Shown here: one piece after another, positions 589 through 56,636 of the stretch
Position numbering within the stretch: the first letter of the stretch is position 1
How the letters are laid out: every line of letters starts with the position of its first letter
DNA from: a virus
Taxonomy: Duplodnaviria > Caudoviricetes
IMG/VR virus record: IMGVR_UViG_3300037119_005132
Span: 1 to 63,824 of that record
Direction: 5' to 3' (one strand)
DNA: 63,824 nucleotides
Position numbers and translations under genes: made by a program
Notes under the pieces: model-generated
Databases searched by the model: none
What the model was told of the DNA's origin: nothing
Seen by the model: only the letters and a program-made list of their open reading frames with translations

Positions 589-685
589 GTAAAGCTGGCT
601 TTACATGCTCCGCAGGGAGCGCGGAAAGCCAGCTTTACAGTCCACAGCGAAGCGGCTTGCTTCGCTGTAAAGCGCGGCTTTACAG
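589..685. promoter_or_regulatory. Cluster of three GTAAAG-N4/5-CTTTAC palindromic sites upstream of gene 1
   Basis: 589-604 (N4), 623-638 (N4, one mismatch), 665-685 (CTGTAAAG-N5-CTTTACAG). Confidence 0.7.
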
Positions 686-712
686 AGTCGCCACACAAGA
701 GAGACAAGAGAC

Positions 713-1594
713 ATGACAACCGAACCGAACAACACTCCGGCCGCTCCCGCGAAGAAAGAGAGCGCGCCGGTCAGCAAGTCCGCGAAGCTCACGGCCGCAG
801 ACATTCCGGCCGCAGAGTGGGACAAGCTTGTCGCCGCTACCGGCACGAGCGTTACCGCCGTCGGAAAGACAATTCGCGCGGTAGCGGCTTTCTGTCAGAC
901 ACACTCCGCGCTCTCCGCGCGGAGCATGGCGGATTACATGAGCGCTCACTACACGTCCGGCGCGCTGTCGCACACGACGATTGCACAGCACAAGAGGTTG
1001 GATGCCACGCTCACGGAAGCCGTGGATTCCGCCATGCTGTCGGATGAGTTGTATGGGAAAGCGCGCTCGCTCTTCGCGGCCGCTTCCTATGGCTGGGAGC
1101 GCTGGGAGGCCGCGCTCAAATGGGAGAGCGTTACCGCTTCCACTCACGAGGGAGAGCGAAGCGCTCTCGCTGTGCGACTCATTACCGAGACCTACAGCGC
1201 GGCTCAGAGTGACGTGGCAATCGCGGCCGCAGAGACCGCGAAAGCCGCAGAGCGCGAAGCCGCGAAAGCGAAGCGCGAGGAAGCCGCAGAGACCGCGAAG
1301 CAAGAGCGCGCGGCCGAACTGGAAGCCGCTACCGGCGCGCTCCGGGAGGAACTGGAAGCGCTGAAAGCCACGGCCGTTACGGCCGGAGAGCCTGGCTCCT
1401 GGGAAGCGCTCACGCGGCTCTTGGGAGACTTCCTCCCTCACGCGGCGGACATGCCGCGCCACACGGGAGCCGCGCTCGCGGCTCTCATGGCGGCCGCCGG
1501 GAACAACTCTCCCGGAGACGTCGGCGCGAAGCATGGCGCGGCTCCCGCGCGGAAGCCGCAGAGCAAGAGCAAGCCGCTTCCGGTAGCGGCATGA
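713..1594 (+). CDS. Hypothetical Ala-rich coiled-coil protein (293 aa), first early gene
   Basis: Long ORF with purine-rich leader and E/A/K helical segment, followed by a hairpin. Confidence 0.8.
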   Translation: MTTEPNNTPAAPAKKESAPVSKSAKLTAADIPAAEWDKLVAATGTSVTAVGKTIRAVAAFCQTHSALSARSMADYMSAHYTSGALSHTTIAQHKRLDATLTEAVDSAMLSDELYGKARSLFAAASYGWERWEAALKWESVTASTHEGERSALAVRLITETYSAAQSDVAIAAAETAKAAEREAAKAKREEAAETAKQERAAELEAATGALREELEALKATAVTAGEPGSWEALTRLLGDFLPHAADMPRHTGAALAALMAAAGNNSPGDVGAKHGAAPARKPQSKSKPLPVAA

Positions 1595-1599
1595 CATAC

Positions 1600-1626
1600 G
1601 GGGGAGCGGCCGTAAGCCGCTCCCCC
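1600..1626 (+). terminator. GC hairpin after gene 1
   Basis: GGGGGAGCGGC-CGTAA-GCCGCTCCCCC; no U-tract. Confidence 0.5.
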
Positions 1627-1732
1627 ACACTCTCCCGCGAGGGAGCCGCTCACCCGGCTCTCTCGCGGCGAGAGCGCTTCGGCGACCCCGCTGGGCTTGC
1701 AGCTTTGCTGCCGATCCATCCGGGCCTCCGGG

Positions 1733-1753
1733 CTGTAAAGCGTCGCTTTACAG
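1733..1753. promoter_or_regulatory. CTGTAAAG-N5-CTTTACAG palindromic site
   Basis: Perfect 8-bp arms, intergenic. Confidence 0.7.
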
Positions 1754-1852
1754 GCCCTATGCCTATGTCGGCCGCGACACCCGCCGCGGCCGCGCGGTCA
1801 ATGAACGAACGGCCGGACACCGTGTCCGGCCTCGCACAGAAAGGTGACGTCA

Positions 1853-2047
1853 ATGAGCGTTCCCCCTCCCCGTCCGTCCACCCTCCGGGTGATCGAGACC
1901 CCGACCCGAGTGGTCAATGAAGATTCGCCCCGCGCACCGCGCACGACGACCATCGTCGTGCGCTGGGACAGCGTGCTCACCGTCCTCGCGTCGCTGCTCA
2001 TCGGCGTCGCGATCGGCGCGAGCGTCATGACGGCGGTGACGTTCTGA
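1853..2047 (+). CDS. Small membrane protein (64 aa)
   Basis: RBS GAAAGGTG; C-terminal hydrophobic helix; TGATG coupling. Confidence 0.75.
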   Translation: MSVPPPRPSTLRVIETPTRVVNEDSPRAPRTTTIVVRWDSVLTVLASLLIGVAIGASVMTAVTF

Positions 2048-2574
2048 TGCGCGGCTTCGACAAGGCCGTCTTCGTCGGCGCGGGCGTCATCATCGCCTGC
2101 GGATTCGGCGCGCTCACCGTGGCGATGGTCAGCCCGGCGTTCGCCGCGCCGGCCGATGAGCCCGAGGCTGTAAAGCCGCCCTTTACAGGGCAGCCGGTCT
2201 GCTCCGAGTCCGTCGTCGCCGTCGGCGGCGAGTGCTGGGGACCGCTGCTCGCTCTGCCCGAGGTGCCCATCACCGACGTGCCGTGCGTGACCGAGGACAG
2301 CGACAACTGCTACTGGGATGCGACCTCGAGTGGCAACGGCGAGGGGCGTTCGTTCGTCGTCGTCGATGGCAAGCAGTTCTTCGCCGATGAGCCGGAGCCC
2401 GTCGCTCCCGCGCCGGTCGCCGCCCCCACCGGTGAGCACACCGGCACCGTCGTGCTCAACGGCGAGACCTGGCAGTACACCGACGGGTGGGACACCATCC
2501 TGTACTGCGAGCTCCCGCTCACGGTCGGCATCGACGTCGACAACAACGGCAACGAGTGGGCAGCGTGCATGTGA
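2047..2574 (+). CDS. Secreted/membrane-anchored Cys-containing protein (175 aa)
   Basis: N-terminal hydrophobic signal with AFA; coupled start and stop. Confidence 0.8.
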   Translation: MRGFDKAVFVGAGVIIACGFGALTVAMVSPAFAAPADEPEAVKPPFTGQPVCSESVVAVGGECWGPLLALPEVPITDVPCVTEDSDNCYWDATSSGNGEGRSFVVVDGKQFFADEPEPVAPAPVAAPTGEHTGTVVLNGETWQYTDGWDTILYCELPLTVGIDVDNNGNEWAACM

Positions 2575-2861
2575 TGGACGCGCTCACCATCCCCGAGGAG
2601 GGCACGGTCGATCGCTCGCCGCTCAACATCCTCGACGTGCTCTGCTCCCTGCAGGGTGACATCCTCATCGAGACGCGAGCGATCGAGCGCGAGTTCCAGC
2701 GACTCACCGCCCGGCCGCGCATCGAGGAGTCGATCATGCAACGTCTCGCCGTGCTGCGAGACGACCGCGATCGGCTGCTCACGTCGCTGCTCTGGCACCG
2801 CCAGGAGCACGCCCACATGCCCGACGACTGCGCGATCTGCGATCGGTCGGTGTCGCTGTGA
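2574..2861 (+). CDS. Hypothetical protein (95 aa)
   Basis: TGATG overlap; C-terminal H..H..CxxC. Confidence 0.75.
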   Translation: MDALTIPEEGTVDRSPLNILDVLCSLQGDILIETRAIEREFQRLTARPRIEESIMQRLAVLRDDRDRLLTSLLWHRQEHAHMPDDCAICDRSVSL

Positions 2862-2956
2862 GCGTCGTGCTCGCCACCCTGTTCGTCACCTGGGCGGGCG
2901 CTCTCGTGCCCGCCCTGGTCGGCGCCGTCGTCCTGCTCATCGGCCGTGTCCGATGA
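2858..2956 (+). CDS. Very small membrane protein (32 aa)
   Basis: GTGA overlap; VSVVLATLFVTWAGALVPALVGAVVLLIGRVR. Confidence 0.6.
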   Translation: MSVVLATLFVTWAGALVPALVGAVVLLIGRVR

Positions 2957-3017
2957 CCGGAGCAGACTTGCTCTGCACCCCACGGCTCCCGTCACTGCGA
3001 CGGTCTCGCCGAACCAG

Positions 3018-3037
3018 CTGTAAAGATCCGCTTTACA
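3018..3037. promoter_or_regulatory. GTAAAG-N5-CTTTAC palindromic site
   Basis: CTGTAAAG-ATCCG-CTTTACA just upstream of the RBS of the next gene. Confidence 0.7.
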
Positions 3038-3060
3038 CCACACCAGAAAGGCTGGCCGAC

Positions 3061-3306
3061 ATGGCTACTCTCACCCTCACTCCCCGCCACGGCAGGGACT
3101 ACCCCAGCAAGGCCGCCGTCGTCGCGGACTGGGCCGACGGCAAGGACTTCACCGTTGCCAACGCCTTCGACCCGGACAACGGCCGGCCGGTCTCGATCCG
3201 CGAGTCGAGCACGCTCGTCTCGCGTGGCATCGACGCCGTGCACATCCGGTACAAGAAGCTGACGCAGATCGCCGTCATCCCCGTCCGTCCGGTGGTCGAG
3301 TCATGA
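3061..3306 (+). CDS. Hypothetical protein (81 aa)
   Basis: RBS GAAAGG; ATG at 3061. Confidence 0.8.
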   Translation: MATLTLTPRHGRDYPSKAAVVADWADGKDFTVANAFDPDNGRPVSIRESSTLVSRGIDAVHIRYKKLTQIAVIPVRPVVES

Positions 3307-3659
3307 CCCGCCGTCGCGGGGTCGAGGTCGAGATCCTCGACCACGACAAGCTCGAGCGTGCGTGCCAGGCTCACGGTCTGGCGACCGTGAGCTACACCGG
3401 CAACGCGCTGCTCCGTCGCCTCGACGGCGGAGCCGCCGTCGTACTCAGCTACGAGGGCGTCGGCGCGACCACGCTCCGCACCGGCTGGGTCTACCTCGAC
3501 ACCGAGAGCCACGAGTGGCAGTGCCTGCCGCTCGGCGTGGTGGAGGACTGCCGTACCGGAGTCAATGAAGATCTCGCGGACTTCATCCGCACGTTCGGGT
3601 CGCGACTCGACTCGAACCACTACCGCTGGTTCCAGTGGGCGAACGAGGAGACGCGCTGA
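3303..3659 (+). CDS. Hypothetical protein (118 aa)
   Basis: ATGA overlap; high GC3. Confidence 0.8.
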   Translation: MTRRRGVEVEILDHDKLERACQAHGLATVSYTGNALLRRLDGGAAVVLSYEGVGATTLRTGWVYLDTESHEWQCLPLGVVEDCRTGVNEDLADFIRTFGSRLDSNHYRWFQWANEETR

Positions 3660-3928
3660 TGCAGATCCACGACCACAACTACCAGCCGCACCCCGAGATG
3701 CCGACCGTCAAGGTCTGCGCCGTCGAGGACTGCGGCGCCCACGAGAACGACGGGCAGGAGACCTGGCTCGGCCAGATCCTGGTCGACGGCGAGTGGGTGG
3801 ACTACGCCCGAGGCTCGTCGGCCTCGGCGACCCGCTGGGCCGACGAGGATCCAGCCGCCCGCCGCGTCGTCTACTGGACGCGCAAGAGCGTGCCGGTCTG
3901 GCCTGTCAATGAACGAGAGGCACGCTGA
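3659..3928 (+). CDS. Hypothetical protein (89 aa)
   Basis: RBS GAGGAG; TGATG coupling. Confidence 0.8.
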   Translation: MQIHDHNYQPHPEMPTVKVCAVEDCGAHENDGQETWLGQILVDGEWVDYARGSSASATRWADEDPAARRVVYWTRKSVPVWPVNEREAR

Positions 3929-4068
3929 TGTGGGTCGTCTTCAACAATGAGACCGGCTGGTCGGACGAGTCGATGCGGTTCGGCAGCAAGGGTGAGGCGC
4001 TGGACTTCATCGCCGAGCACGACGACAACGAGTACGGCGACACGTTCGGGATGAGGTACGAGCCGTGA
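3928..4068 (+). CDS. Hypothetical protein (46 aa)
   Basis: TGATG coupling; MWVVFNNETG...; not in ORF track. Confidence 0.7.
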   Translation: MWVVFNNETGWSDESMRFGSKGEALDFIAEHDDNEYGDTFGMRYEP

Positions 4069-4289
4069 CCGGCCCCGTCGTGCACCTCAGCACCGGCGGC
4101 ACCGGGTCCGCCTGCGGTCGCCGTGCGGTGGATTGGTCAGCGGACGAGACCGCCAAGGTGGACTGCGCTCGGTGCCGCGGCACCTTCCGGTTCACCCTCC
4201 GCCTGCTGGACGAGCGCGGCGAGCGTGTCCCGTCCAGCTATGGCGAGCGCGTGGCCGCACACCGCCGACGGGTGGCCCGCGATGTGTGA
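4065..4289 (+). CDS. Small putative Zn-binding protein (74 aa)
   Basis: H...CG...CxxC; GTGA overlap. Confidence 0.7.
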   Translation: MTGPVVHLSTGGTGSACGRRAVDWSADETAKVDCARCRGTFRFTLRLLDERGERVPSSYGERVAAHRRRVARDV

Positions 4290-4719
4290 GTCCTGCGTCC
4301 CCACCTGCAGCGTGCCACTGCGTCTGTCAACGAACGGCAACGAGGTCGGCCAGGTGACCCTGCTCATCGACAGCGAAGAGGCAGGCACCGTCGTCAGTGT
4401 CACCGTCGGCGCGAAGGAACTGGCACAGGCCGTGTGGACTGCGGCCAGGGATCACGAGGCCCGCGTTGCTCGGCAGAAGACTGCCGAGTGGGTGTACCAG
4501 ATGACCCTCGGCCGCACCGTCCCGAAGTTCCGAGCGAACCGGCAGATCGCGACGTCGCCGTCGAGCCTGCCGTTCCAGATGCGGCACCATCACGTCGAGT
4601 TGCTCGACACCGAGGTGCCGGCGAGCTACGACGCGGAGGTCTCGGTGATGTTCCACAACGGATACACCGCCCGCGTCCCCTTCTACGACCTCGTGCCACT
4701 GCGCGAGGACGACGAGTAG
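4282..4719 (+). CDS. Hypothetical protein (145 aa)
   Basis: ATG overlapping upstream gene. Confidence 0.7.
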   Translation: MCESCVPTCSVPLRLSTNGNEVGQVTLLIDSEEAGTVVSVTVGAKELAQAVWTAARDHEARVARQKTAEWVYQMTLGRTVPKFRANRQIATSPSSLPFQMRHHHVELLDTEVPASYDAEVSVMFHNGYTARVPFYDLVPLREDDE

Positions 4720-4731
4720 TCAATGAACATC

Positions 4732-4753
4732 GGCTGTCGGAATTCCGACAGCC
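4732..4753. promoter_or_regulatory. Perfect 22-bp palindrome with core TGTCGGAATTCCGACA
   Basis: GGCTGTCGGAATTCCGACAGCC, just upstream of RBS. Confidence 0.7.
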
Positions 4754-4774
4754 CCTCCCTGGAAAGGAACCATC

Positions 4775-6340
4775 ATGGCGAACTACTTCGACACCACCAC
4801 GCGATGGGTCGAGTCTTGCCTGGGCTACACCGACAAGCCGCTGCTCAAGAACCAGCGACTCATCGCCGAGCCCGACCGCATATTCAGCTACGGCTCGCAC
4901 TTCGAGATCGCCCGGCTGATCCGTGACCGCCGCAACCCGTCGCACTGGATGCTCAACGGCGACCGCTTCTCGAACACCACGTCGAAGCACCAGGCCGAGG
5001 TGCTGTCCGCGATCACTCGCCGTGGCGGGAGCTTCGCTCGGGTGACCATCCCGTACTCCGCACTGCAAGCCGCCGACGTGCTGCTCGACACCGTGCAGAT
5101 CATCGAGTCAACGAGCGACCGGTGGGAGGACAAGCAGGAGTACTTCTTCGAGATGCCCGACTCGGCGACGTGGCAGTACGACACCGAGACCGCCGACCTC
5201 GGCGGCTGGCAGAACAGCAAGACCGGGGAGTTCGTCGCCCGGCTCAAGATGTGGGGCGAGGCGGGGCCGAAGCGGGAGACCTGCGTGGTCTGCGCGGATC
5301 CCGTCGGCTACACCCACTTCATGAAGCGCTACCCCGACGACCGCGACCGCGCATGGACGGAGTGCCAGGAGTTCACGCAGGCCATCGAGGCGCACCGCCG
5401 CTTCTCGCATGGCGAGTGGGAAGAGATCGGCCACCACGTGCGGGAGACCGGACGGCGCAGGCTCATCTCCCGTCGTGGCTGGTCGGAGTGGGATCTCGTG
5501 GACATGCCCGACTCCCCGACCGGCGTGGCCTACGTCCGCTCGTGGCGCCGGCACTGGCTGGGTGAGTCAGTGATCAAGGCGAAGGTGAGTTACCGCGGCT
5601 GGCGCAAGTGCCGTGACTGCGAGGGCACCGGCGTGGTCGAGCCCTACTCAGAGCAGTTCGCCGACGACGAGGGCTACGGCCCACTGACCGAGCGGCAGGA
5701 CTACTACGCACCGTCGACCGAGCAGTACGTCACCATCGTCGAGGACGACATGGTCTACCGTCATCGAACGGTGGCCGCCACCCGGATGACCACGCAGTGC
5801 GCCACCTGCGGCGGCGCCCGCCGGAACCGGGTGAACCGGCAGCGTTGGGCGTACTTCCTCAGCGGGTTCGACTCGAACGAGGCACGGCCGAGCTACTTCT
5901 TCTGCGAGCTCCCGCCCAAGGCACGCCCGACCAGCGTGGCCGAGGCGTACCAGGTGCTCAAGCCGAGGGCCGTGCACCTGGCTGAGCAGGTCGGCCGCGA
6001 GGTCGAGCGGCAGGGCGACATCTTCTGGATCCCGATGCCGGACCTCACCCTCCGTGACCTGCGCAAGCAGGGCACGTACCTCAAGCGGACCACCGAGACC
6101 GAGGAGTTCGGCCCGGACTGGAACCGCACTCGAGTGACGCACTTCACCGGCGGGGAACCGTACGTGCTGTCAACGAACCACACCGTGAGTGAGCAGGTCC
6201 GAGTGGGCCGACTCACCTACGCCCGAGGGATCATGCGGCACGAGCCGGACCGCCGCCGTCCCGACCACGCCCGGATCAAGCTGGGCGACGGCAAGACCTG
6301 GGGTCTTGTCGTGAAGAACACCGTTCCGATTGGAGCCTGA
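4775..6340 (+). CDS. Large hypothetical protein (521 aa) with CxxCxGxG Zn motifs
   Basis: RBS GAAAGGA; CRDCEGTG and CATCGG; RQGDI. Confidence 0.9.
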   Translation: MANYFDTTTRWVESCLGYTDKPLLKNQRLIAEPDRIFSYGSHFEIARLIRDRRNPSHWMLNGDRFSNTTSKHQAEVLSAITRRGGSFARVTIPYSALQAADVLLDTVQIIESTSDRWEDKQEYFFEMPDSATWQYDTETADLGGWQNSKTGEFVARLKMWGEAGPKRETCVVCADPVGYTHFMKRYPDDRDRAWTECQEFTQAIEAHRRFSHGEWEEIGHHVRETGRRRLISRRGWSEWDLVDMPDSPTGVAYVRSWRRHWLGESVIKAKVSYRGWRKCRDCEGTGVVEPYSEQFADDEGYGPLTERQDYYAPSTEQYVTIVEDDMVYRHRTVAATRMTTQCATCGGARRNRVNRQRWAYFLSGFDSNEARPSYFFCELPPKARPTSVAEAYQVLKPRAVHLAEQVGREVERQGDIFWIPMPDLTLRDLRKQGTYLKRTTETEEFGPDWNRTRVTHFTGGEPYVLSTNHTVSEQVRVGRLTYARGIMRHEPDRRRPDHARIKLGDGKTWGLVVKNTVPIGA

Positions 6341-6343
6341 TCA

Positions 6344-6502
6344 ATGACCGACGAGCGCATGACTGTCGATGAGTACGACCGGAAGAAGGAACAGGCCCGC
6401 ATCCTGCGGGCCCTGGTCGACGAGACCGCTCGGCACAACGCGGAACTCACGCGATTGTCCGCCGAACTGGACAAGTACACCACCGAGGAGGTGAAGAAAT
6501 GA
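6344..6502 (+). CDS. Small coiled-coil protein (52 aa)
   Basis: RBS GGAG; MTDERMTVDEY... Confidence 0.7.
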   Translation: MTDERMTVDEYDRKKEQARILRALVDETARHNAELTRLSAELDKYTTEEVKK

Positions 6503-6669
6503 ACACCACGCTTGAGAAGCCGGCCATCATCACGGAGGCCGCACCCCTCACGATCAGCGAGACCTCCTCGCTCATCGCCCTGGCCGCGTCGTCCGAGAGG
6601 ACGGCGCGCGTCAAGGCCACCGGCCCGCGCGCGTCGCGCGGCTGGCAGCTGGGCGGCAACGTCGATTAG
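6499..6669 (+). CDS. Hypothetical protein (56 aa)
   Basis: RBS GGAGGTG; ATGA overlap. Confidence 0.7.
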   Translation: MNTTLEKPAIITEAAPLTISETSSLIALAASSERTARVKATGPRASRGWQLGGNVD

Positions 6670-6826
6670 GACTGAACCAGTCCGAACCTCTGGTCGCTTC
6701 ATGCGTGGAGCCCGGTAAGAGCGGCAGCGAACTGCCGCCACCAGAGGACTGACGTTGTCCCATGCGGCCCGCCTCTCTCCTCCATCGGGGGATGTCGGAG
6801 AGCGGCGGGTCGGGCGGACCAGCCCA
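6669..6826 (+). ncRNA. Candidate structured intergenic RNA (three-way junction plus long hairpin)
   Basis: Stems 6687-6694/6740-6747, 6696-6701/6706-6711, 6721-6727/6732-6738, 6766-6780/6797-6811. Confidence 0.45.
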
Positions 6827-6832
6827 CCCCCC

Positions 6833-6848
6833 TGTCGGAATTCCGACA
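6833..6848. promoter_or_regulatory. TGTCGGAATTCCGACA palindrome
   Basis: Perfect 16-mer upstream of RBS. Confidence 0.7.
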
Positions 6849-6866
6849 CCTCAACGAAGGAGCATC

Positions 6867-7187
6867 ATGCCCACCCCATACACCGAAGAACTCCCGGTCG
6901 AACTGACCGTGTACCGCTCGCCGCTCGACGGCGTGGTCGTGGTGCAGATCGACCAGGAGCAGAACAACGAGGACGACACCCGCATCCGGGTGTACCTCAA
7001 CGACAGCCCGATCTTCCAGGGCGACACCGAGACGACCAACGTGCTCGACCAGGACGTGGCGCGGGACGTGGCGATGCACCTCGAGAAGGCATGGGATGTC
7101 GCGAGCGTGCCGCAGTGGGAGCAGGAGAACCTGCGCATCGCCGTCTACAAGGCGATCAGCTTCCTCCGTGGGGAGAGCCGGTCGTGA
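6867..7187 (+). CDS. Hypothetical protein (106 aa)
   Basis: RBS AAGGAG. Confidence 0.85.
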   Translation: MPTPYTEELPVELTVYRSPLDGVVVVQIDQEQNNEDDTRIRVYLNDSPIFQGDTETTNVLDQDVARDVAMHLEKAWDVASVPQWEQENLRIAVYKAISFLRGESRS

Positions 7188-7495
7188 CCGAGAACAAGAA
7201 CGAGATCGCCGACGACCTGCGAGAGCGAGCACTGCGCGACAACCTCACCAAGCTCGAGTGCGCGGCGTGCTCCGAGGATGCCTGGGTCAGCGACCCGGAC
7301 ATGATCGCGAAGCTGGTCGAGCACTGCGTGTTCGACCACGGCCAGCGTCAGGGCATCATCGGCGTCAAGTGCGTCGACTTCATCTCGGCCTACGTGCTGA
7401 GCGACAGGCTCGGCGCCGCACCGACCAGCGACCACGAGGTGATGTGGCGCCACGAGCAGACCGCCGAGCACCCGACCGTCTCCGGGGAGTGGTGA
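7184..7495 (+). CDS. Hypothetical protein (103 aa)
   Basis: GTGA overlap. Confidence 0.75.
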   Translation: MTENKNEIADDLRERALRDNLTKLECAACSEDAWVSDPDMIAKLVEHCVFDHGQRQGIIGVKCVDFISAYVLSDRLGAAPTSDHEVMWRHEQTAEHPTVSGEW

Positions 7496-7758
7496 TGCCC
7501 GCCCGCACCAAGGGCAAGTGGCTCACCGCCCACGCCCTGCGCTCCGGCCTCGCCGAGCAGTGGGCCACGCAGACCGGCGGCATCACCGTCACCGTCGAGC
7601 TCCGCTGGGTCAAGGAACGAGATGAGTTCCGCGTGATGGTGATGCGCGGCCGGCAGATCGACAAGCTCACCCTCTACCCCTCCCTCGCAATGGCGAGGCA
7701 GGTCTTCATCACAGAACAGCGGCACGCCGTGTCGCCCCGAGAAAGGAACCAGCCATGA
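7495..7758 (+). CDS. Hypothetical protein (87 aa)
   Basis: TGATG coupling. Confidence 0.75.
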   Translation: MPARTKGKWLTAHALRSGLAEQWATQTGGITVTVELRWVKERDEFRVMVMRGRQIDKLTLYPSLAMARQVFITEQRHAVSPRERNQP

Positions 7759-8432
7759 CCCTGACCACCAGCGTCCGATGGGTCGAAGCCGACAGCGACT
7801 TCGAGACCGAGACGCACTACGCCGAAACCGATGACCCGCGCATCCTCGCCGTCATCCAGCGCGACCCGTACGCACAGATCAGCGAGCTCTACGACGGGGA
7901 CGCGATCAACCCCATCATCTACGTCGACCACGTCCACGGCCTCAGCTTCGACTGGGTCGCAGGCTACGACGGCGGCGAGGCTGCGCTGATGCAGCGTGCG
8001 TACGACGAGTGGGGCTGGAACGGCACCGCCCGCCGCTACCTCTGGATCTTCCACGGCATCGCGGCCGACAACGCACACGGTGGGTACGACAGGTCAGGCA
8101 ACTGGATCGTCGCCACCTCCCGCGCCTACCGCGAGCACGTCGGCATCACCGAGGAGCCGAAGACCTACGACGAGGCGCTCGAAGATGTGAAGTCCATCGC
8201 GAAGGATCTCTCCGACGCGCTGGATGGATACGTCTACGGCGTGGGATGGGCAGTCAATGAAGCTCGCCGGCTGCCGAGCGATGAGCCCATCGACCTGCTC
8301 GACGGGGAGTGGGAGATCGACATGCAGTGCTGGGGATTCGTCGGCGAGGAGTATGCCCGAACGACGGCGCTCGCCTTCGACCACGGCTCGCCCGACCTGC
8401 CGCTCATGCTCTCGATCGAGGTGTGCGCATGA
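7755..8432 (+). CDS. Acidic hypothetical protein (225 aa)
   Basis: RBS GAAAGGA; CWGF motif. Confidence 0.85.
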   Translation: MTLTTSVRWVEADSDFETETHYAETDDPRILAVIQRDPYAQISELYDGDAINPIIYVDHVHGLSFDWVAGYDGGEAALMQRAYDEWGWNGTARRYLWIFHGIAADNAHGGYDRSGNWIVATSRAYREHVGITEEPKTYDEALEDVKSIAKDLSDALDGYVYGVGWAVNEARRLPSDEPIDLLDGEWEIDMQCWGFVGEEYARTTALAFDHGSPDLPLMLSIEVCA

Positions 8433-8683
8433 ACGACGCATCACTCAATGAACGAGTCTTCGATGCGCTGATGAGCGACGGCCGGCGCACCCTCGCCGAC
8501 GAGTTCGCCGCGGCCAACGGTGGGGACGGTGACCCGCAACCCATGACCGAGAGGGAGGCGCTGACGGAGATCACGCGCATCGTGTTCGACCCGACCGTCC
8601 GGCCGGCGCGAGCGCTCGTGAAGATCATCCATGTGCTCGCCGCGGCGGGTCATGCACGAAGGAAGGAAGGGGCACTCTCATGA
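8429..8683 (+). CDS. Hypothetical protein (84 aa)
   Basis: RBS GAGGTG; ATGA overlap. Confidence 0.75.
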   Translation: MNDASLNERVFDALMSDGRRTLADEFAAANGGDGDPQPMTEREALTEITRIVFDPTVRPARALVKIIHVLAAAGHARRKEGALS

Positions 8684-9123
8684 CGACCACCGTGGAGTTC
8701 ATCCTCGGCGCTGACATCAGATCGTGGACCCGGTTCACCGTCGTCGATGCCACCGACGAAGAGGCCGACATCCTCGGCAGCCTGAACACGGAGGCGGCTG
8801 TCGCCTTGGCGAAGACGCTCGACGAGGCGGACCGCCTGGTCTGGGAGGACATGGACTACGACGACAACCCGGACCTGTTCGCGGACTACGCCAGCCCGGA
8901 TGTCATCGAGTGCAAGGTCACGCCGGTCTGGTATCGACCGTCGCACACCCTCGGCAAGTGGCACCTGATCACGGATATCGCCGACGGCACCGAGGTCAGC
9001 GTCTACACCGCCGCCTGCGGCGCCGGCATCGGTGACAACGGCAGCGTCCCCACCCGTGTCGGAATTCCGACAGACCCCATCTGCAAGAAGTGCGCCGCCG
9101 CTCACGAACGGAGAACAGCATGA
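8680..9123 (+). CDS. Hypothetical protein with C-terminal Zn ribbon (147 aa)
   Basis: WH...ACG...CKKC; contains the 16-bp palindrome at 9057-9072. Confidence 0.8.
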   Translation: MTTTVEFILGADIRSWTRFTVVDATDEEADILGSLNTEAAVALAKTLDEADRLVWEDMDYDDNPDLFADYASPDVIECKVTPVWYRPSHTLGKWHLITDIADGTEVSVYTAACGAGIGDNGSVPTRVGIPTDPICKKCAAAHERRTA

Positions 9124-9446
9124 CCGCAACACCCGGACCAGACCACCTGGTCCCGATCAACGTCGGGCTCGAGCAGATGGATCTGCTCGGCCGGTACGTG
9201 GAGATCCAGAAGACCACGCTGATCAACAAGGACATGCCGAGCGAGCGCGAGGAGCGGCTGCACATCAGCGGCCGACTCGTCGCCACGTTCGACAAGTTCG
9301 TCAACGACGAGATCGTCGAGACCAGCCTCACCCTCGAAGGGGGTGGCGGGATGCACAACGACCGCATCTTCGTCTTCGAGTGGGACAGACCCGCCGTCGA
9401 TCCCGACAAGCAACTCATCCGACCCATCTACGCGAAGGAGCAATGA
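9120..9446 (+). CDS. Hypothetical protein (108 aa)
   Basis: RBS GGAG; ATGA overlap. Confidence 0.8.
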   Translation: MTATPGPDHLVPINVGLEQMDLLGRYVEIQKTTLINKDMPSEREERLHISGRLVATFDKFVNDEIVETSLTLEGGGGMHNDRIFVFEWDRPAVDPDKQLIRPIYAKEQ

Positions 9447-9447
9447 C

Positions 9448-9996
9448 GTGGGCTATTACATCTACCTCAATGAGCACGAGTTCACCCTGCAGGCGACGCA
9501 GTACGAGGCCGTGCTCGCACGCTGGCGCGAGTACGAGGAGGGCAACCTGCCCTACCCGTCGAGCTCGGTGTTCTACCAGTACCCGGACGACCCGCCCCGT
9601 GACCTCACGGTGCCCGGGATCTTCCAGGACATGGGCTTCGAGGTCGGCTTCGACGACGACGGCATGACCATCGAGGGGTGGGAGGGCAAGGCTCACAGCG
9701 AGGCCGACTACGTCCGAGTCATCGCCGACCTGATCGACGAGGGCTGGTATCTGGAATGGACCGGCGAGGACGACGAGCGCTGGCGGATGGAAGCGAGCGG
9801 CACCATCGGTGGCGAGACCGTGTTCATCCGGCCGCACCTGCGTGCTCGGCTCGACGACCTGACCAAGATGCTCGACGAGTACGACGAGACCCCGGTGGCA
9901 CAGGGGCCCGAGCTCACCGAGCAGGTCATCCGCGAGCTCGCCGCTGTCGGCCCGCTCATCGCAGCGATGCGTGCACTCATCGAGGATCTGTCGTGA
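9448..9996 (+). CDS. Acidic hypothetical protein (182 aa)
   Basis: RBS AAGGAG; GTG start; W.GEDD motif. Confidence 0.8.
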   Translation: MGYYIYLNEHEFTLQATQYEAVLARWREYEEGNLPYPSSSVFYQYPDDPPRDLTVPGIFQDMGFEVGFDDDGMTIEGWEGKAHSEADYVRVIADLIDEGWYLEWTGEDDERWRMEASGTIGGETVFIRPHLRARLDDLTKMLDEYDETPVAQGPELTEQVIRELAAVGPLIAAMRALIEDLS

Positions 9997-10367
9997 GCAC
10001 CGTCACGCCGGTGCCGGAGGACGATCTGATCCGGCGGTACGAGGCGGCACAGGCCGAGCTCCGCGAAGGGACCGACAAGTTCCCTCGCCTCGTGATGCAG
10101 GAGGTGACCGACGACGACGAGACGTACTGGACGCTGTACTGCCCACGCTGTGAGCACAGCGTGGGCGACGGCGACCTCTACGCGATCAGTCCGGCCGAGC
10201 ACTGGGCACCGAACGAGTACCTGGAAGACGACGCCTTCGACCGTCACCGAGTGACGTTCGATTCGAGCGAGCGCCCCGACCTGGAAGAGACGCTCTACTA
10301 CCAGCACGGCGACCTGCCTGGTCATGCCGTGAGCCTGCCCGATGGATGGAAGGAGGACTGGTCATGA
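9993..10367 (+). CDS. Hypothetical protein (124 aa)
   Basis: GTGA overlap; CPRC. Confidence 0.75.
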   Translation: MSTVTPVPEDDLIRRYEAAQAELREGTDKFPRLVMQEVTDDDETYWTLYCPRCEHSVGDGDLYAISPAEHWAPNEYLEDDAFDRHRVTFDSSERPDLEETLYYQHGDLPGHAVSLPDGWKEDWS

Positions 10368-10726
10368 CTATCGAGAGCGACATCGCCAGCCACAACGTGG
10401 CCACGGACATCCGTGAATCCATGTCCGAGCAGTCGGGGATCCCCGAGCGGGACACCCTCGACCGTGCGCTGTGGCGGGTGGACACCATCCTCAAGGCGCT
10501 CTACGACATGGAGACAGAGGAGCCGGTGCAAGCACTGGGCGATCTGATGTCGGACGTCCTGCACTGGTGCGACTACCACAACCGAAGCCTGAGCCACGCT
10601 CAGGACCGAGCGACCCAGATGGTGGATTGGGAGCGGGCCGACTGGGGCCTGCCCCGCATGTGGGCATCCGACCGGATGTTCCGCCCGACGGGTCCGATCA
10701 TTCGTCAACGAAGGAGTGACCGATGA
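10364..10726 (+). CDS. Hypothetical protein (120 aa)
   Basis: RBS AGGAGG; DLMSDVLHWCD motif. Confidence 0.8.
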   Translation: MTIESDIASHNVATDIRESMSEQSGIPERDTLDRALWRVDTILKALYDMETEEPVQALGDLMSDVLHWCDYHNRSLSHAQDRATQMVDWERADWGLPRMWASDRMFRPTGPIIRQRRSDR

Positions 10727-10959
10727 GCGTCACCGTGAAGATCGAGAACACCTACGAGGACGGGCACGAGTCCGTCGTCAACGTCATCGTCGCCGACCCG
10801 GAGGACGACGACCTCGAGATGTGGTGGGAGGACGAGGTCTTCCCCCACACCGGGGACGGGCACGGGGAGAAGTACCCGAAGCTCGGCTCCATGTACGAGG
10901 CCACGATCACCAAGGCCGACGACGCATCGCTCGTCGGCCAGAGCATGGAATGGGGATGA
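10723..10959 (+). CDS. Small acidic protein (78 aa)
   Basis: RBS AAGGAG. Confidence 0.8.
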   Translation: MSVTVKIENTYEDGHESVVNVIVADPEDDDLEMWWEDEVFPHTGDGHGEKYPKLGSMYEATITKADDASLVGQSMEWG

Positions 10960-12028: not shown

Positions 12029-12082
12029 GAAACCCCTGGTCAGACCGCAGCCGCGGCTGACCCCCTGGAAAGGACAACGAAC

Positions 12083-13199: not shown

Positions 13200-13202
13200 A
13201 GC

Positions 13203-13448: not shown

Positions 13449-13461
13449 ACGGTCGACAGCG

Positions 13462-14683: not shown

Positions 14684-14690
14684 ACGTGGA

Positions 14691-14784: not shown

Positions 14785-14893
14785 CGTGGATCGTGACCCG
14801 CAGGGGTACGATCGGAAGCATTCTGGGCCTCGAGTGGGAGCTTAGCATTACCCCCCTCTTGAGGCGTATTTCGTTATGCCCAAGGAGGGCTCA

Positions 14894-52175: not shown

Positions 52176-52176
52176 G

Positions 52177-54810
52177 TCAGTCCCTCTCGACTCGTGCGCG
52201 CGCCGCCGCCAGGCGACGCTCGCGGACCTTCGCCCGGGCCGGTTCGGCACGAGCAGCGATCTTCTCCTGGTGACGGTACTCGGCGACCGCCGTCCGCGCG
52301 ATCCCCGCGACGAGCTCGGGATCCATGCCGACCGTCGCGGCCGCCACGAGCACCGGGTCCGGCTTGAGCGCACCGGCGCCGATCATCACGGTCTGCCGGC
52401 CGGCGGATGCCGCCAGCTGACGCACCGGCAGGCCCGGGGTGTTCACGACCGGGACGCCGATGAGCTCGAGCGCGCCGCGCACCTCGCGCCAGTCGCCGGA
52501 GACCGCACCGATGGCGCGCATCTTGGTGATGTCGTCGTCGGTGACGTCGGGCGGGATGATGCCGGAGTACCAGACGCCGAAGGCGTTCTCGCCGACGTTG
52601 ACGAACGCGCGCACTGCCTCGGGCTTGTCGTAGAACTCGCTCGCCCGCGACATGCTCATGGTGCGCGTGGCGTGCCCGCCCCAGGTGAGGCAGCCGACGA
52701 ACTGCTCGCCCTGGTCGGTGTCGATGACGCCCTTCTTGAAGTAGGCGTAGTCGGTGTACGAGCGCGGCACCTCCTGGCAGAAGCCGGTGATGCCGACGTG
52801 GCAGACGCCCCACTCCGAGACGTAGCCCTGGATGCGCCGGGTCTCCCGGTCGATCTTGAGCGGGAACGCGCGGTCCAGGGTCGGCTCGGAGAAGAACTCG
52901 GCCGGGTAGACCGGGTGCGCGGGCTCGACCAGGCGCGCGGCCGGCGCGCGCTCGGCGACGCTGGCGGATGCCGTGATGACCTTGGAGCCGTGGTGCTGCG
53001 CCGGCCAGATGCCGAGCGCCTCCTTGTGCATGTTCGCGCACAGGCCCGCGAGCCAGTCGGGGTTCTGGACGTACTTCGCCAGCTGCATCCGGCAGCGGTT
53101 GAAGTCGCCGGGAGCGCCCCACGCGATCTTCGCGGCGCCCTCGCCCTTGACCCAGTAGCGCCGGATGCGCGCGGTCGGGATCGGGTGGGTGATCCAGCCC
53201 GGGCCGTCGTGCGTGCCGGGCGCGTAGGTGTGGACCGTGACCGGCCCGCCATCCTGGGAGTTGAGCTCGACCAGCGCACCCGCGGCGATGGCCCAGGTGT
53301 CGGGGAGCTCGACCTCGTCGCAGCCGAGCGCGCTCTTGCGCTTGCGGATGTGCGCCTTCACGGCGTCCGGGTCGTTCGCGCGGCCGATGGCCTGGATGGC
53401 GTTCTGCAGATCCTCGCAGTTCGCGATGGGGAACGAGCCGTCCGGCATCGCCGCACCCTCGCCGGCGAGGCGGTCGCGCTCCTCGGGGGAGACGTCGCGG
53501 AACTCCGGCTCGCTCTCCGGCGACATGCAGCCGCACGCGGCGAGCACCGCGAACTGCTCGTCGACCTGCGCGTCGGTGAGATCCTCCTGGAACTCGTGGC
53601 CGAGCGCGATGTACGCCTCCTGAAAGGCGGGGATCGGCACGATGGTCAGGCCCGCGACGCGCATCTTCGAGAACACCGTCTTGTCGGGGTTCATCATGTC
53701 GAGGATGGCGTCCATGATGTCGTCGCCCTCGCCCGACATCTCCTCGACCTGGATCTCGGCGTCGTCGCCGTCGATGGAGACACCGCGCACGGTGCCGTCG
53801 ACCATGCCGTCGATCGCCTCCTGGGCGAACGGCTTGGTGAGCACCACCGCGCCCTTCCAGCGCCACATGTCCGTGGCGTCGTCGCGCCACGCCTCATCGA
53901 CCCGGCCGATGGTCACGACATCCGAGGTCTGCCCGCCGTGGGTCGAGACCGTCTCGTAGCGCAGCGGGATGGGCAGCTGTCGGGTGGAGAGCGCGCCGAT
54001 CGCGAACTCGCGGCCGTCGCCGGTGGCGACGCCCTCCGGGGCGAGCACGCCATGGACGGGGATCTCGGTGATGAGCTCCTCGCCCTCCTCGGGCTCGTCG
54101 GCGATCAGGTCTTCCTCGTCCGGCGGCTCGACGGCGATGTCCGTCTCGTCCACCGCGGCGGCCGCCATGACGAGGTCGTCGCTGGTGACGATGTCGGGGT
54201 TGTCGACCTCGATCGGGTCTTCGGGACCGAGCACGAACGTGTTGGCGCTCATCGCGTCCCCCTCTCTCGCCGCTGGCATAGCCAGGCACCGGCAGTTGAT
54301 CCAGATCTCGGGCGGGCCGATCGGCTCCCCCGGGAAGTGCAGGTGGAATCCACCCACTGTGAAGGTGGCACCGATGGGGACGGTCTGTCCATCGGTGTTC
54401 TCGTGATTCTCGCGCACCGCGTCGTCGTGATGACTGACCCAGCGCTTGTGCTTGCCGCCGCGGGCGGCCACGCCGCCCACGGTGGCGTGGTTCACGGTGT
54501 ATCCGCTCAGCCAGTACGTGATCCGGGTGACCTGGGAGTCCTCGACCTCGAATCCGGGGTCCGAGGTCTTCTCGAGGGCCTCGATGAGGCTCTCCTGGTA
54601 CTCCGCCATGCGCTTTTCGCCGTCGGCGTGCGGCGCCTCGGCCTTGAAGTGCTCCAACCAGAGCACCGAGGCCGCCGTGACGACGTCCTCGGTCCAATCC
54701 GGGTTCCCGGCGATGAGATTCTCGAGAGAATCGCGAACGAACGGCTCAAGTTCCTCGTCGGCGGCCGTCAGACGGGCCGCGCGTGCTGCAGCGAACGTCT
54801 GCGGGTCCAT
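52177..54810 (-). CDS. MuF-like minor capsid / capsid maturation protease fusion (877 aa)
   Basis: K.W....D..VR..H...GQ..FPG.P..INCRC; EG..TGDGR; PDGSFPI; SGDWR. Confidence 0.85.
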   Translation of the reverse strand: MDPQTFAAARAARLTAADEELEPFVRDSLENLIAGNPDWTEDVVTAASVLWLEHFKAEAPHADGEKRMAEYQESLIEALEKTSDPGFEVEDSQVTRITYWLSGYTVNHATVGGVAARGGKHKRWVSHHDDAVRENHENTDGQTVPIGATFTVGGFHLHFPGEPIGPPEIWINCRCLAMPAAREGDAMSANTFVLGPEDPIEVDNPDIVTSDDLVMAAAAVDETDIAVEPPDEEDLIADEPEEGEELITEIPVHGVLAPEGVATGDGREFAIGALSTRQLPIPLRYETVSTHGGQTSDVVTIGRVDEAWRDDATDMWRWKGAVVLTKPFAQEAIDGMVDGTVRGVSIDGDDAEIQVEEMSGEGDDIMDAILDMMNPDKTVFSKMRVAGLTIVPIPAFQEAYIALGHEFQEDLTDAQVDEQFAVLAACGCMSPESEPEFRDVSPEERDRLAGEGAAMPDGSFPIANCEDLQNAIQAIGRANDPDAVKAHIRKRKSALGCDEVELPDTWAIAAGALVELNSQDGGPVTVHTYAPGTHDGPGWITHPIPTARIRRYWVKGEGAAKIAWGAPGDFNRCRMQLAKYVQNPDWLAGLCANMHKEALGIWPAQHHGSKVITASASVAERAPAARLVEPAHPVYPAEFFSEPTLDRAFPLKIDRETRRIQGYVSEWGVCHVGITGFCQEVPRSYTDYAYFKKGVIDTDQGEQFVGCLTWGGHATRTMSMSRASEFYDKPEAVRAFVNVGENAFGVWYSGIIPPDVTDDDITKMRAIGAVSGDWREVRGALELIGVPVVNTPGLPVRQLAASAGRQTVMIGAGALKPDPVLVAAATVGMDPELVAGIARTAVAEYRHQEKIAARAEPARAKVRERRLAAARARVERD

Positions 54811-56636
54811 CAGATGCTCGCGGGGTACTCGAGACGCATCAGCGCGAGGTGTTCGCGCAGCAGCTGCCGGTCAGGACGCTTGCGGAGGGTCAAGAGCGTC
54901 CGAGTGTAGCCGTCGAGGGCTCGATTGAGGGTGTCGGTGTCGCTGGGAAGGTCGAATTGCCCCGTACAGGCCCAGGCATCGTCGAGAACGGCCGTGATTT
55001 CGGCCTCAGAGAGCGCCGGCATCCGCAGATAGAGCTCCGCGGCGCTGGTCTTGGGCGGGATGTGCCCGTTGACCCGGTTCTTGAGCCGGTTCCCGGCCCT
55101 CTCGAGCGCCCGGAACACCAGGATCTCGCTGCCGGCGACCAGTTCGTCGGGGACTTCGCCGTCGTTCGGCGCCCCGCGGGTCGGGTGATTGAGGATCGAC
55201 GGCGTCGGCCGGTCCTCGTGGGTCTCCTCGGCGTGCTCGACGGGTGCGGCGACGGGCACGCCGAGAAGGGCGAGGCCCTGTGCGACGAGTTCGGGGGTGG
55301 TCTGGCCTTCGGCGAGCTTGACGGTGAGCCACTCGGTGCGCTCCTTCTCGCCCATCACGTCGGTCTCGTCGAATCCGTTCTCGCGGACGACGGCTTCCTT
55401 GCTCAGCACGCCCCGGTCGTAGAGCTCCATCGCCTCCTTGGAGCGGTTCGGCCGCAGGCGGAGGTCCGCGGTGTCCGCCGCGATGGCGTAGTCCTCGACC
55501 TCGTCCTCCGACATGCCCAGACCGAGCAGCACCGGGCGAAGGTAGCCCACGGTGAGCGACGAGGTGATGACCTTGAGCAGCGGCTCGGAGTGCGACTTGA
55601 TCGCGGCCTCGTCAATCTGCCAGGCGGCCCAGTGGTTGGTGTCGGCGGTGCCGGTGAGCACCTCGGGGGGCATGTCGAGGCCCAGCGCCAGGCGACGGAT
55701 GGCCTCCTGGCGGAGCTCGATGGCGTGCGCATCGAGGTCGGTCCAGAACTTGAGGAACTGCACCTTGTCGATGTACTCGCCGTCGACCTGCGTGACGATC
55801 GGCACCTTCGCCGAGGCGTCGCTGGGGTCGTCGATCGCGATGGACGCGATCTCCACCAGCAGGTCGGCGAACGCCTGCGCCGGGTTCGCGACCTGCGTGG
55901 CGACCGGCTCGGCATCCGGGTCGCCCGGATTCAGCTTGCGCGAGGGGAGCGTGGGGAACGAGAACTGCGACGGCAGGATCAGCAGGCCCGCGGAGGTGAG
56001 TCGGGATTCCAGCTGCGCGGCGACGTGCATGGTGAGCCGCTCGATCTCACTGAGGATCGGCAGCACCGCGCGCGACGGGCTGGTGGAGATCTTCGGCTTG
56101 CGCGGATGTGGCCGCCAGATCCTGATCACCATTGAGTCGGCGGTGTCGGCCTCGATCTTGTCGCTGCCGGTGCCGATCTGGAAGGTGGTGTCGCCCTTCC
56201 GGGTGATCTCGGTGGCCGCGATCACGAACCAGTCGTCGTCGCCATCCTCGTCCAGGCCGATGATGAACGCCTCGCCGGCGACGGTGAACTGGATCCCGAG
56301 CATTCGCAGCATCTCGGCCTGGCCCTCGGGTCCGCCGAACAGCGCGGCCATCGCCTCGGTGACGAGGTCGTGCTGTGAAGGCTGACCATCGGGGCCGACG
56401 ACGTAAAGCGTGGCTTTACTGAGCAGGTTGCCCACCCAGTCGACGCCGTAGCGGTACTCGCCGATGGTGTCGTAGAAGTCCCACGCGGCGTTCTGCCATG
56501 CTTCGCCGGCAGCCTTGCCGTTCTTCCCCGACCAGTTGCGATTCGCCTTGCCGATCGTGTAGTTCTTGGCGGCAGCGACGAAGCCGGTCTGTGGAACGGC
56601 GAGGACTTCGGATCGGAATGGCGTCCCCCGTGGCAT
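54810..56636 (-). CDS. Portal protein (608 aa)
   Basis: WQ..AWD.YD.IGE, V.GE, RIWRPHP, RLA.GLD.PPE.L.G, NHW. Confidence 0.92.
   Translation of the reverse strand: MPRGTPFRSEVLAVPQTGFVAAAKNYTIGKANRNWSGKNGKAAGEAWQNAAWDFYDTIGEYRYGVDWVGNLLSKATLYVVGPDGQPSQHDLVTEAMAALFGGPEGQAEMLRMLGIQFTVAGEAFIIGLDEDGDDDWFVIAATEITRKGDTTFQIGTGSDKIEADTADSMVIRIWRPHPRKPKISTSPSRAVLPILSEIERLTMHVAAQLESRLTSAGLLILPSQFSFPTLPSRKLNPGDPDAEPVATQVANPAQAFADLLVEIASIAIDDPSDASAKVPIVTQVDGEYIDKVQFLKFWTDLDAHAIELRQEAIRRLALGLDMPPEVLTGTADTNHWAAWQIDEAAIKSHSEPLLKVITSSLTVGYLRPVLLGLGMSEDEVEDYAIAADTADLRLRPNRSKEAMELYDRGVLSKEAVVRENGFDETDVMGEKERTEWLTVKLAEGQTTPELVAQGLALLGVPVAAPVEHAEETHEDRPTPSILNHPTRGAPNDGEVPDELVAGSEILVFRALERAGNRLKNRVNGHIPPKTSAAELYLRMPALSEAEITAVLDDAWACTGQFDLPSDTDTLNRALDGYTRTLLTLRKRPDRQLLREHLALMRLEYPASI
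56403..56419. promoter_or_regulatory. GTAAAG-N5-CTTTAC site inside portal gene
   Basis: Perfect arms; encoded by rare codons AGT AAA ... CTT. Confidence 0.55.

Follow-up and report, generated by a model that had tools for sequence, protein, structure and literature searches.

GTAAAG-N5-CTTTAC palindromes as putative operators at the early end of a siphovirus genome, with an orphan protein as candidate binder

Which protein reads the short palindromes that recur at the early end of some phage genomes, and what does it control there? Short dyad repeats of this kind have been reported for the early end of actinobacteriophage genomes, namely for Cluster O in 2015 (PMC4351075) and for Cluster EG in 2020 (PMC7302621), and the available text of both papers assigns neither a binder nor a function. 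The DNA analysed here, referred to as the window, is the whole of the IMG/VR virus record IMGVR_UViG_3300037119_005132; it is 63,824 bp long, is classed as linear and has a completeness estimate of 100%, and the annotation of its 88 open reading frames (ORFs) with Pfam and PHROGs identifies this soil phage as a siphovirus. With the palindrome family GTAAAG-N4/5-CTTTAC, the window contributes a third motif of this kind, unrelated to the other two, and it offers a testable pairing of this motif with an apparently co-inherited orphan protein that is modelled as a symmetric dimer. This protein of 293 amino acids is encoded by gene 1 (713-1594, plus strand), which lies behind three of the palindromes. 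We put the probability at about one in two that the palindromes are operators of an autoregulated gene-1 homodimer, which controls the immediate-early transcription units; DNA binding, the identity of the binder and the regulatory outcome are the parts of this reading that we infer.

The palindromes and their sites

A search of the window for GTAAAG-N{3,7}-CTTTAC returned seven exact copies, and none was found in any of 100 dinucleotide shuffles. Together with one copy that carries a single mismatch, they form a family of eight where none is expected, and the family noticed in the preliminary description is therefore real. The exact cores are located at 589-604 with a spacer of four nucleotides (N4) and, all with N5, at 667-683, 1735-1751, 2170-2186, 3020-3036, 19174-19190 and 56403-56419; the eighth copy, GGAAAGCCAGCTTTAC, lies at 623-638 and again has an N4 spacer. 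No further copies are present in the window at up to three mismatches to the 19-mer. All seven GTAAAG and all eight CTTTAC hexamers of the window, and also every GTAAA or TTTAC pentamer, fall within the sites, and in a de novo scan for palindrome families with 6-mer arms this was the sole family whose arm never occurs alone. We do not conclude from this that lone half-sites are avoided, as AT-rich pentamers containing TAA already have a background of only 0-2 copies in this genome. The sites read identically on both strands, and across the eight copies the arms are invariant over 6-8 bp and the spacer is free; with 6-bp arms and a spacer of 4-5 bp, the half-site centres are 10-11 bp apart. A longer form, CTGTAAAG-N5-CTTTACA, is common to four sites.

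Six of the eight copies lie within the first 3.1 kb of the early arm, and three of them precede gene 1. Site 1 (GTAAAG-CTGG-CTTTAC, 589-604) and site 2 (GGAAAG-CCAG-CTTTAC, 623-638) double as the left and right arm of one 50-nt inverted repeat (589-638), which has a folding energy of -35.4 kcal/mol (z -7.7) as a single strand. Site 3, CTGTAAAG-CGCGG-CTTTACAG (665-685), is found 29 nt before the ATG of gene 1, and the centre-to-centre spacings of the three sites are 34 and 44.5 bp. Two further sites are intergenic: site 4, CTGTAAAG-CGTCG-CTTTACAG (1733-1753), is located in the gap between a hairpin that follows gene 1 and the ATG at 1853, and site 6, CTGTAAAG-ATCCG-CTTTACA (3018-3037), lies 24 nt before the ATG at 3061. 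The earlier statement that the copies are mostly found just upstream of genes does not hold for the site at 1735, which is 101 nt away from the start codon at 1853.

The remaining three copies are intragenic. Site 5, CTGTAAAG-CCGCC-CTTTACAG (2168-2188), is part of ORF 2047-2574, where it is read as GTA AAG CCG CCC TTT ACA, site 7 (GTAAAG-GGCAC-CTTTAC, 19174-19190) lies inside the HNH-like ORF 18888-19472 (CGT AAA GGG CAC CTT TAC), and site 8 (GTAAAG-CGTGG-CTTTAC, 56403-56419) inside the portal gene 54810-56636 on the minus strand, in which AGT AAA GCC ACG CTT TAC encodes SKATLY. Within the HNH ORF, site 7 falls inside a CxxGH-type motif. It had been proposed that the copies in coding sequences force rare codons, and the codon counts bear this out: AAA accounts for 3.9% of the lysine, CTT for 3.8% of the leucine, TTT for 2.2% of the phenylalanine, GTA for 3.3% of the valine and AGT for 4.3% of the serine codons, that is, each for 2-4% of its class. 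When codons were shuffled synonymously within genes (1000 shuffles), a mean of 0.002 sites was obtained, with at least one site in two and at least three sites in none of the shuffles, compared to the three sites observed. The intragenic copies would mean that a phage can write regulatory sites into its coding sequence at the cost of rare codons.

Gene 1 and its relatives

A metagenome scan identified two contigs encoding members of the gene-1 family, L148 and L149. L148 (2,930 bp, 62% identity in gene 1) is syntenic with positions ~350-3,600 of the window and contains GTAAAG-CTAG-CTTTAC at 267 as well as N5 sites at 321, 1424 and 2326, which are the counterparts of window sites 3, 4 and 6. 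All three intergenic N5 sites are found at orthologous places, with different spacers (window/L148: CGCGG/AGCCG, CGTCG/AGCGG and ATCCG/AACCG) and with distances to the next start codon of 29, 101 and 24 nt in the window and of 27, 72 and 24 nt in L148. L149 (1,437 bp, 36-45% identity in gene 1) has a perfect N5 site with the spacer CGGCG 38 nt before the gene; in addition, two GGCAAGCCAGCTTTACAG copies are located upstream of its gene-1 homolog, which resemble site 2 of the window, so that the AAGCCAGCTTTACAG form recurs twice. In a three-way alignment of the regions upstream of gene 1, the longest stretch of invariant columns coincides with the gene-1-proximal N5 site. The motif is therefore found upstream of gene 1 in all three DNA sequences that encode a family member. 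The gene-1 profile gave no match in five relatives of the window, of which G002 and G007 are complete, G006 is 89% complete and G001 and G009 are fragments; GTAAAG sites are likewise absent from all five, and a de novo scan of G002, G006 and G007 detected no palindrome family of their own. As far as these sequences go, the motif is co-inherited with gene 1, a pairing that is new here. Furthermore, the arms are identical across the 11 N5 copies from four sequences, without any compensatory changes, which points to constraint on the arms and not on the spacers; the constant arms and varying spacers that had been described for the window are borne out in both relatives.

Other searches for relatives were less productive. 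A word-indexed search of 5.8 billion proteins with gene 1 returned only two relatives, and five family members were found at E <= 1e-30 when 1.84 billion protein representatives were searched with a hidden Markov model. Neither megablast of window positions 1-6000 nor tblastn of gene 1 gave a match among cultured phages, and no relatives were found when viral contigs were searched with a 521-amino acid early protein of the window, gene 1 and alignment A4, or when prokaryote genomes were searched with alignment A4. A scan of IMG/VR for the pattern TGTAAAG-N5-CTTTACA returned at least 117 loci, each with a single site among the matches listed, and is not informative. Among the matches listed for contigs aligned to window positions 1-20000, no differences occur at the sites.

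An AlphaFold model of the gene-1 protein, which was based on a seven-sequence alignment, reached a mean pLDDT of 78.9, with values exceeding 90 at residues 30-200. The fold consists entirely of helices: eight of them lie in the part up to residue 164, followed by a long one (167-218) and one more (229-263); residues 1-22 mostly have a pLDDT below 50, and the helical fold starts at about residue 30. The longest invariant block of the alignment, ALSH(T/A)T(I/L)(A/G)QH, is helix-turn-helix-like and lies on helix 87-103. A first model, built from four sequences, reached a pLDDT of 60.9 and was discarded; its Foldseek search returned nothing below E 1. With the later model, Foldseek gave no match below E 0.001, and the top rows comprise P1 ParB on DNA (E 0.29), the Noc DNA-binding domain and the VirB core, with E values of 0.29-2.4. 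When the Foldseek list was realigned with VIA-align, the KorB-operator complex 1r71 obtained a Z value of 5.0 (107 residues aligned, rmsd 6.8), and matches that are likewise weak were seen for Noc (6y93, Z 5.0), P1 ParB (Z 4.5), VirB (Z 4.1) and SopB (Z 4.0); in a wide VIA-align search, the long helix 166-222 dominated the results. In a protein atlas, clusters bearing SopB_HTH and ParB_N were found at TM scores of 0.41-0.46, with feature scores below 0.9, and Pfam detected no match to ParB_N, the N-terminal (CTP-binding) domain of ParB, in gene 1. The likeness of the predicted fold to ParB, KorB and Noc is consistent but weak, and we do not place the protein in that family.

The model of two gene-1 copies is symmetric and has an ipSAE score of 0.74, compared to 0.00 for the best control; three runs agree in at least 84% of the contacts, and the partner pLDDT is at least 80. 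Of 30 proteins solved as pairs of one chain, 20 came up to this score mark, as did one of 23 proteins solved as single chains, although these counts are rough, since an alignment of our own was used. Residues 86-114, which include the invariant helix, lie outside the listed dimer interface. The modelling supports a symmetric homodimer.

Directly after the stop codon of gene 1, a GC-rich 11-bp hairpin is located on the plus strand (1600-1626; -27 kcal/mol, z -4.3), which is conserved in L148 and looks like a terminator, albeit one with no U tract. It is made up of two copies of GGGGGAGCGG (1600-1609 and 1617-1626); the window contains two more exact copies of this element at 265-274 and 572-581, and all four lie within the first 1.7 kb. 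Four terminator-like matches were found in positions 1-4200, none of which coincides with a site, and the stems of the sites are AT-rich.

Based on these observations, we propose that the eight palindromes serve as double-stranded DNA operators of a phage-encoded homodimer, most likely the gene-1 product, each subunit of which would read one GTAAAG half-site. As the half-site centres are about one helical turn apart, both half-sites would be presented on one face of the DNA. The three sites before gene 1 suggest autoregulation, and one site each would serve the next two early gene blocks, which start at 1853 and 3061. Because gene 1 ends in a hairpin, the following genes probably need start signals of their own, and sites 4 and 6 are located in exactly those gaps; in this way, the gene-1 protein may determine how strongly the immediate-early genes are transcribed, or how they are shut off. 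The three intragenic sites would be younger, lineage-specific additions that could act by roadblocking, looping or titration, and for the distant sites roadblocking or looping is speculation. The preliminary description had already regarded the palindrome as the operator of a dimeric protein controlling the earliest genes, and with arms conserved and spacers free in the relatives this is still the best reading, in which the binding itself is the conjectural step.

Objections and competing explanations

Several findings weigh against the proposal. Conservation of the intragenic copies, which had been suggested as a check, is poor. Site 5 is absent from the homolog in L148, which has VNEPAAS in place of VKPPFTG. 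Among six IMG/VR relatives that were found via the portal protein, the portal site is kept in one, L122 (a 4.5-kb fragment, 88% identity); in L123 (87% identity), SKATLY is encoded as AGC AAG GCC ACG CTC TAT, so that four synonymous differences leave no site, and the site is also absent from L124 to L127. Judging by these comparisons, the intergenic sites are old and constrained and the intragenic sites young and lineage-specific, yet non-random. Regarding the candidate binder, none of the seven family members has a Pfam match at E <0.05, a profile search of the PDB with gene 1 gave nothing relevant, and the structural matches are all weak (Foldseek E >=0.29; Z <=5, rmsd ~7 Å), Z values this low being common for helical models. 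The co-occurrence of motif and gene is based on three sequences only. Because further early genes are common to L148 and the window and L149 spans just 1.4 kb, the binder could be another linked protein; the relatives without the motif are distant and lack most early genes, and many genes of the window therefore show the same pattern of presence and absence. Moreover, two of the sites have a 4-bp spacer, which is often poorly tolerated by rigid dimers. Finally, no sigma-70-like promoter (-35 and -10 elements with a spacing of 16-18 bp) on which the operators could act was found in positions 1-4200.

The objection concerning linked genes leads to the alternative that the palindromes are operators of another phage protein or of a host transcription factor and that gene 1 is just the first regulated gene, a possibility that we hold to be unlikely. 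The dyad symmetry and the conservation of the arms would fit any dimeric binder, gene 1 belongs to no recognised DNA-binding family, and L148 has several more early ORFs in common with the window; in L149, however, the sites accompany gene 1 alone on the contig. The binders put forward by the preliminary description were two ribbon-helix-helix (RHH) proteins, a winged helix-turn-helix (wHTH) protein and a host factor. The wHTH protein (62914-63363) has a homolog with 36% identity in the complete relative G007, which has no sites, and this argues against it. For the RHH ORF 14147-14683, a search of the five relatives detected no homolog, and neither this ORF nor the second one (59708-59875) has a Pfam match. 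Nor is there support for a host factor: a scan of prokaryote genome contigs for CTGTAAAG-N4-GCTTTACAG returned at least 120 loci, the best 80 of which are single sites scattered over many phyla, and neither a host regulon nor an actinobacterial cluster is seen among the matches listed. In addition, the motif is absent from the complete genomes G002 and G007, which presumably meet the same host factors if the hosts are shared. Gene 1, which lies behind three sites and appears to be co-inherited with the motif, is a better candidate that had been missed.

The palindromes could also function at the level of the early transcripts, as RNA hairpins with an 8-bp stem and a loop of 4-5 nt that act as 5' stabilisers, processing sites or sites for a translational regulator just upstream of ribosome-binding sites. 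In five of seven cases in the window, L148 and L149, the intergenic N5 sites are located 24-38 nt before start codons, isolated sites fold as expected (-5.4 to -17.2 kcal/mol, z -1.8 to -3.9), and a loop of either 4 or 5 nt is easily tolerated; the repeats of Cluster EG phages are likewise associated with start codons, as far as the available text of PMC7302621 goes. However, the arms are invariant, with no compensatory pairs in the 11 N5 copies from four sequences, and AU-rich stems would be a weak choice at 67% GC. Furthermore, the minimum-energy fold of site 5 is not the hairpin, and site 4 of the window and its counterpart at 1424 in L148 lie 101 and 72 nt away from the next start codon. 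Invariant AT-rich arms without compensatory changes argue for sequence-specific reading rather than for a generic hairpin, and we consider this explanation somewhat less probable than operators read by another phage protein or a host factor.

Still less probable, in our opinion, is that the palindromes are early promoters or activator sites which recruit RNA polymerase via a phage or virion factor instead of repressing. The absence of sigma-70-type promoters from positions 1-4200 would favour it, since transcription has to start anew downstream of the gene-1 hairpin, in exactly the gaps where sites 4 and 6 are situated; in addition, the right arm TTTACA, read as sequence, resembles a -35 hexamer. 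On inspection, however, none of the sites is followed at a fixed distance by a TANNNT-like -10 element, asymmetry is the rule for promoters, no gene for an RNA polymerase or a sigma factor was detected, and the copies inside the HNH and portal genes would be odd promoters. A role as centromere-like or DNA-organising sites, comparable to parS or NBS sites, for a ParB-type protein in segregation, compaction or packaging rather than transcription is very improbable: the weak fold likeness to the DNA-binding domains of ParB, Noc, SopB and KorB, the clustering of sites near a group of DnaA boxes at the joined genome ends and the minority of intragenic copies, which is also a feature of chromosomal parS sites, would agree with it, but neither a ParA-type ATPase nor a ParB N-terminal domain was detected, the lack of an integrase and a repressor suggests a lytic phage and the site positions track gene starts in two relatives.

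Genome setting and comparable systems

The window has a GC content of 64-70% (2-kb windows) and is organised in two arms. Early and DNA-metabolism genes are encoded on the plus strand from 713 to ~28,800 and include HNH nucleases, an AAA_25 primase/helicase-like protein, SSB, RusA, RecT and an exonuclease, and the lysis, tail, head, portal (54,810-56,636) and large terminase genes are found on the minus strand (29,060-63,819). Among the ORFs, neither an integrase nor a repressor was detected, which suggests a lytic phage, and searches for sigma factors and RNA polymerases were likewise negative. The closest cultured phages are Microbacterium phages with a capsid identity of 38-40%, including OneinaGillian and Squash of Cluster EG. 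The 521-amino acid early protein (4775-6340) shares 42% identity with gp96 of OneinaGillian, which is encoded 3.5-5 kb from the right end of that genome; the left end of the window thus corresponds to the right end of Cluster EG genomes.

Contigs assembled from two soil runs extend about 1.4 kb leftward past position 7 of the window. In these assemblies the left end of the record therefore does not correspond to a physical end, and it is probable that the genome is circularly joined or has terminal redundancy. Four exact TTATCCACA boxes, which we take to be the DnaA-box consensus, straddle both record ends, all on the minus strand (58-66, 147-155, 159-167 and 63764-63772), and suggest an origin-like region once the ends are joined. 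Given these boxes and the contigs beyond position 7, the non-coding region 1-712 is probably a divergent region between the two arms. Within it, positions 380-560 hold repeated GAGAGAGCCGCAGAG-type units, which are common to the window and L148. The leader region and gene 1 have a GC content of 0.75 at third positions, compared to ~0.9 elsewhere in the genome, which gives them the look of a module of their own.

A second, asymmetric motif, GTCAAYGAR, occurs 12 times in the window where 1.4 copies are expected, exclusively on the plus strand and in the early arm (1797-12802), and five times in L148 (1481-2319), again only on the plus strand; its core TCAAYGA is found 23 times on the plus and twice on the minus strand. 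A start codon lies within some of the copies (ATG 1853 in the window, ATG 1513 in L148), and the motif could be a sense-oriented regulatory or RNA-level signal. The early arm encodes three HNH-type endonuclease ORFs (13411-13911, 18888-19472 and 23389-23823). In the minus-strand region 38214-45085, two long open frames overlap: the frame 41981-45085 matches tape measure proteins, and the frame 38214-44459 matches minor tail proteins only downstream of 41978, which indicates that the latter frame of 2081 amino acids is partly spurious. No RNA families or tRNAs were found in the window, and among the matches listed for public runs there is no RNA run with window sequence.

The lambdoid operators are 17 bp long and are bound by helix-turn-helix dimers. 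The sites of the window share with them the 17-bp dyad and the arrangement of three tandem sites before the gene of the putative regulator, in a region that is probably divergent once the ends join; unlike in lambdoid phages, no integrase and no member of a CI- or Cro-like family was found, and the spacing between sites is wider. KorB of plasmid RK2 is a dimeric regulator that acts on about a dozen identical short palindromes (OB), which are promoter-proximal, distant or intragenic, and the structure that gene 1 matches best, if weakly, is the ParB-type helical DNA-binding domain of KorB (1r71). In contrast to KorB, the gene-1 protein has neither a ParB N-terminal (CTP-binding) domain nor a sequence match to KorB, the operator differs and the genome is that of a lytic-looking phage rather than a plasmid.

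Among actinobacteriophages, the stoperators of Cluster A mycobacteriophages are present in many copies of a short site, some of them intragenic, for which a block of transcription has been proposed; according to the part of PMC4351075 that is available, they are asymmetric and oriented with transcription, whereas the sites of the window are symmetric. For the Cluster O mycobacteriophages, the same source describes 34 copies of the 17-bp dyad repeat TGTTCGGNNNCCGAACA, a third of them inside genes, and in which its authors predict a dimeric DNA-binding protein of unknown identity (Cresawn et al. 2015, PMC4351075). In its available text, the Cluster O repeats are similar to those of the window in their invariant arms (7 bp in Cluster O), their short variable spacer and their greater density toward one genome end, the right one; they differ in that the 34 copies are distributed genome-wide, compared to eight copies here, that most of them are located away from promoters and starts and that the sequence and the phage group are unrelated. 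Literature searches with the motif letters gave only unrelated matches, and nothing relevant was found on inverted repeats of actinophage early genes in combination with RNA-seq. The preliminary description had not recognised the motif: its sequence is new indeed, but the kind of element is in print, at least in the available text of PMC7302621 and PMC4351075.

A parallel case is provided by the Cluster EG Microbacterium phages, in which an 18-bp inverted repeat, GATCAACCNNGGTTGATC, is present in 8-10 copies (Jacobs-Sera et al. 2020, PMC7302621). As far as this paper is available, leftward genes near the right end of the genome have the repeats 14-22 bp upstream of their start codons; despite the divergence of this region the repeats are conserved, and they are stated to have an unknown function and are likened to the 17-bp repeats of Cluster O. 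In the last 9.7 kb of OneinaGillian (L150, 52000-61703), we found ten EG-type sites at up to three mismatches and no GTAAAG site, and at up to three mismatches the EG consensus does not occur in the window, so that the two are the same kind of element and not the same element. Both are found in related phages of the same genome layout, as short palindromes at the non-structural-gene end; the EG copies lie mostly in short gaps before starts, and site coordinates compared with the annotation place at least one EG copy inside gp96 of OneinaGillian. Their sequences are unrelated: the spacer comprises 5 (or 4) bp here and 2 bp in Cluster EG, the arms are AT-rich here and the distance to the start codon is 24-101 nt compared to 14-22. 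Furthermore, the adjacent terminal gene belongs to a different family (gp104 and gene 1, hhalign probability 0.2%). OneinaGillian gp104 consists of 255 amino acids, is encoded by the first leftward gene at the extreme right end and has no detectable Pfam domain. It is conserved, down to ~34% identity, as the last annotated right-end gene in 37 Microbacterium phage records, including Hyperion and Squash, across phages to which PMC7302621 attributes a common GATCAACC repeat. By analogy, gp104 is a candidate binder of the GATCAACC repeat, and its pairing with the EG repeat would mirror that of gene 1 with the present motif.

It is tempting to speculate, although we think it unlikely to be true, that EG-like actinophages possess a swappable immediate-early cassette consisting of a terminal first gene and a cluster-specific palindrome, one version of which would combine the gene-1 family with GTAAAG-N5-CTTTAC and another the gp104 family with GATCAACC-NN-GGTTGATC. 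Gene 1 would then encode a new ParB/KorB-like DNA-binding dimer without a CTP-binding domain that serves as a global lytic timer, and selection would write additional sites into the HNH and portal genes by means of rare codons so that the bound protein delays or blocks their transcription. Irrespective of this extension, the pairing of gene 1 with its motif, if true, would define a new family of DNA-binding regulators and account for the organisation of immediate-early transcription in these lytic phages. Since gp104 is conserved in parallel, a first early gene may likewise be paired with a repeat in the Cluster EG phages, which can be cultivated.

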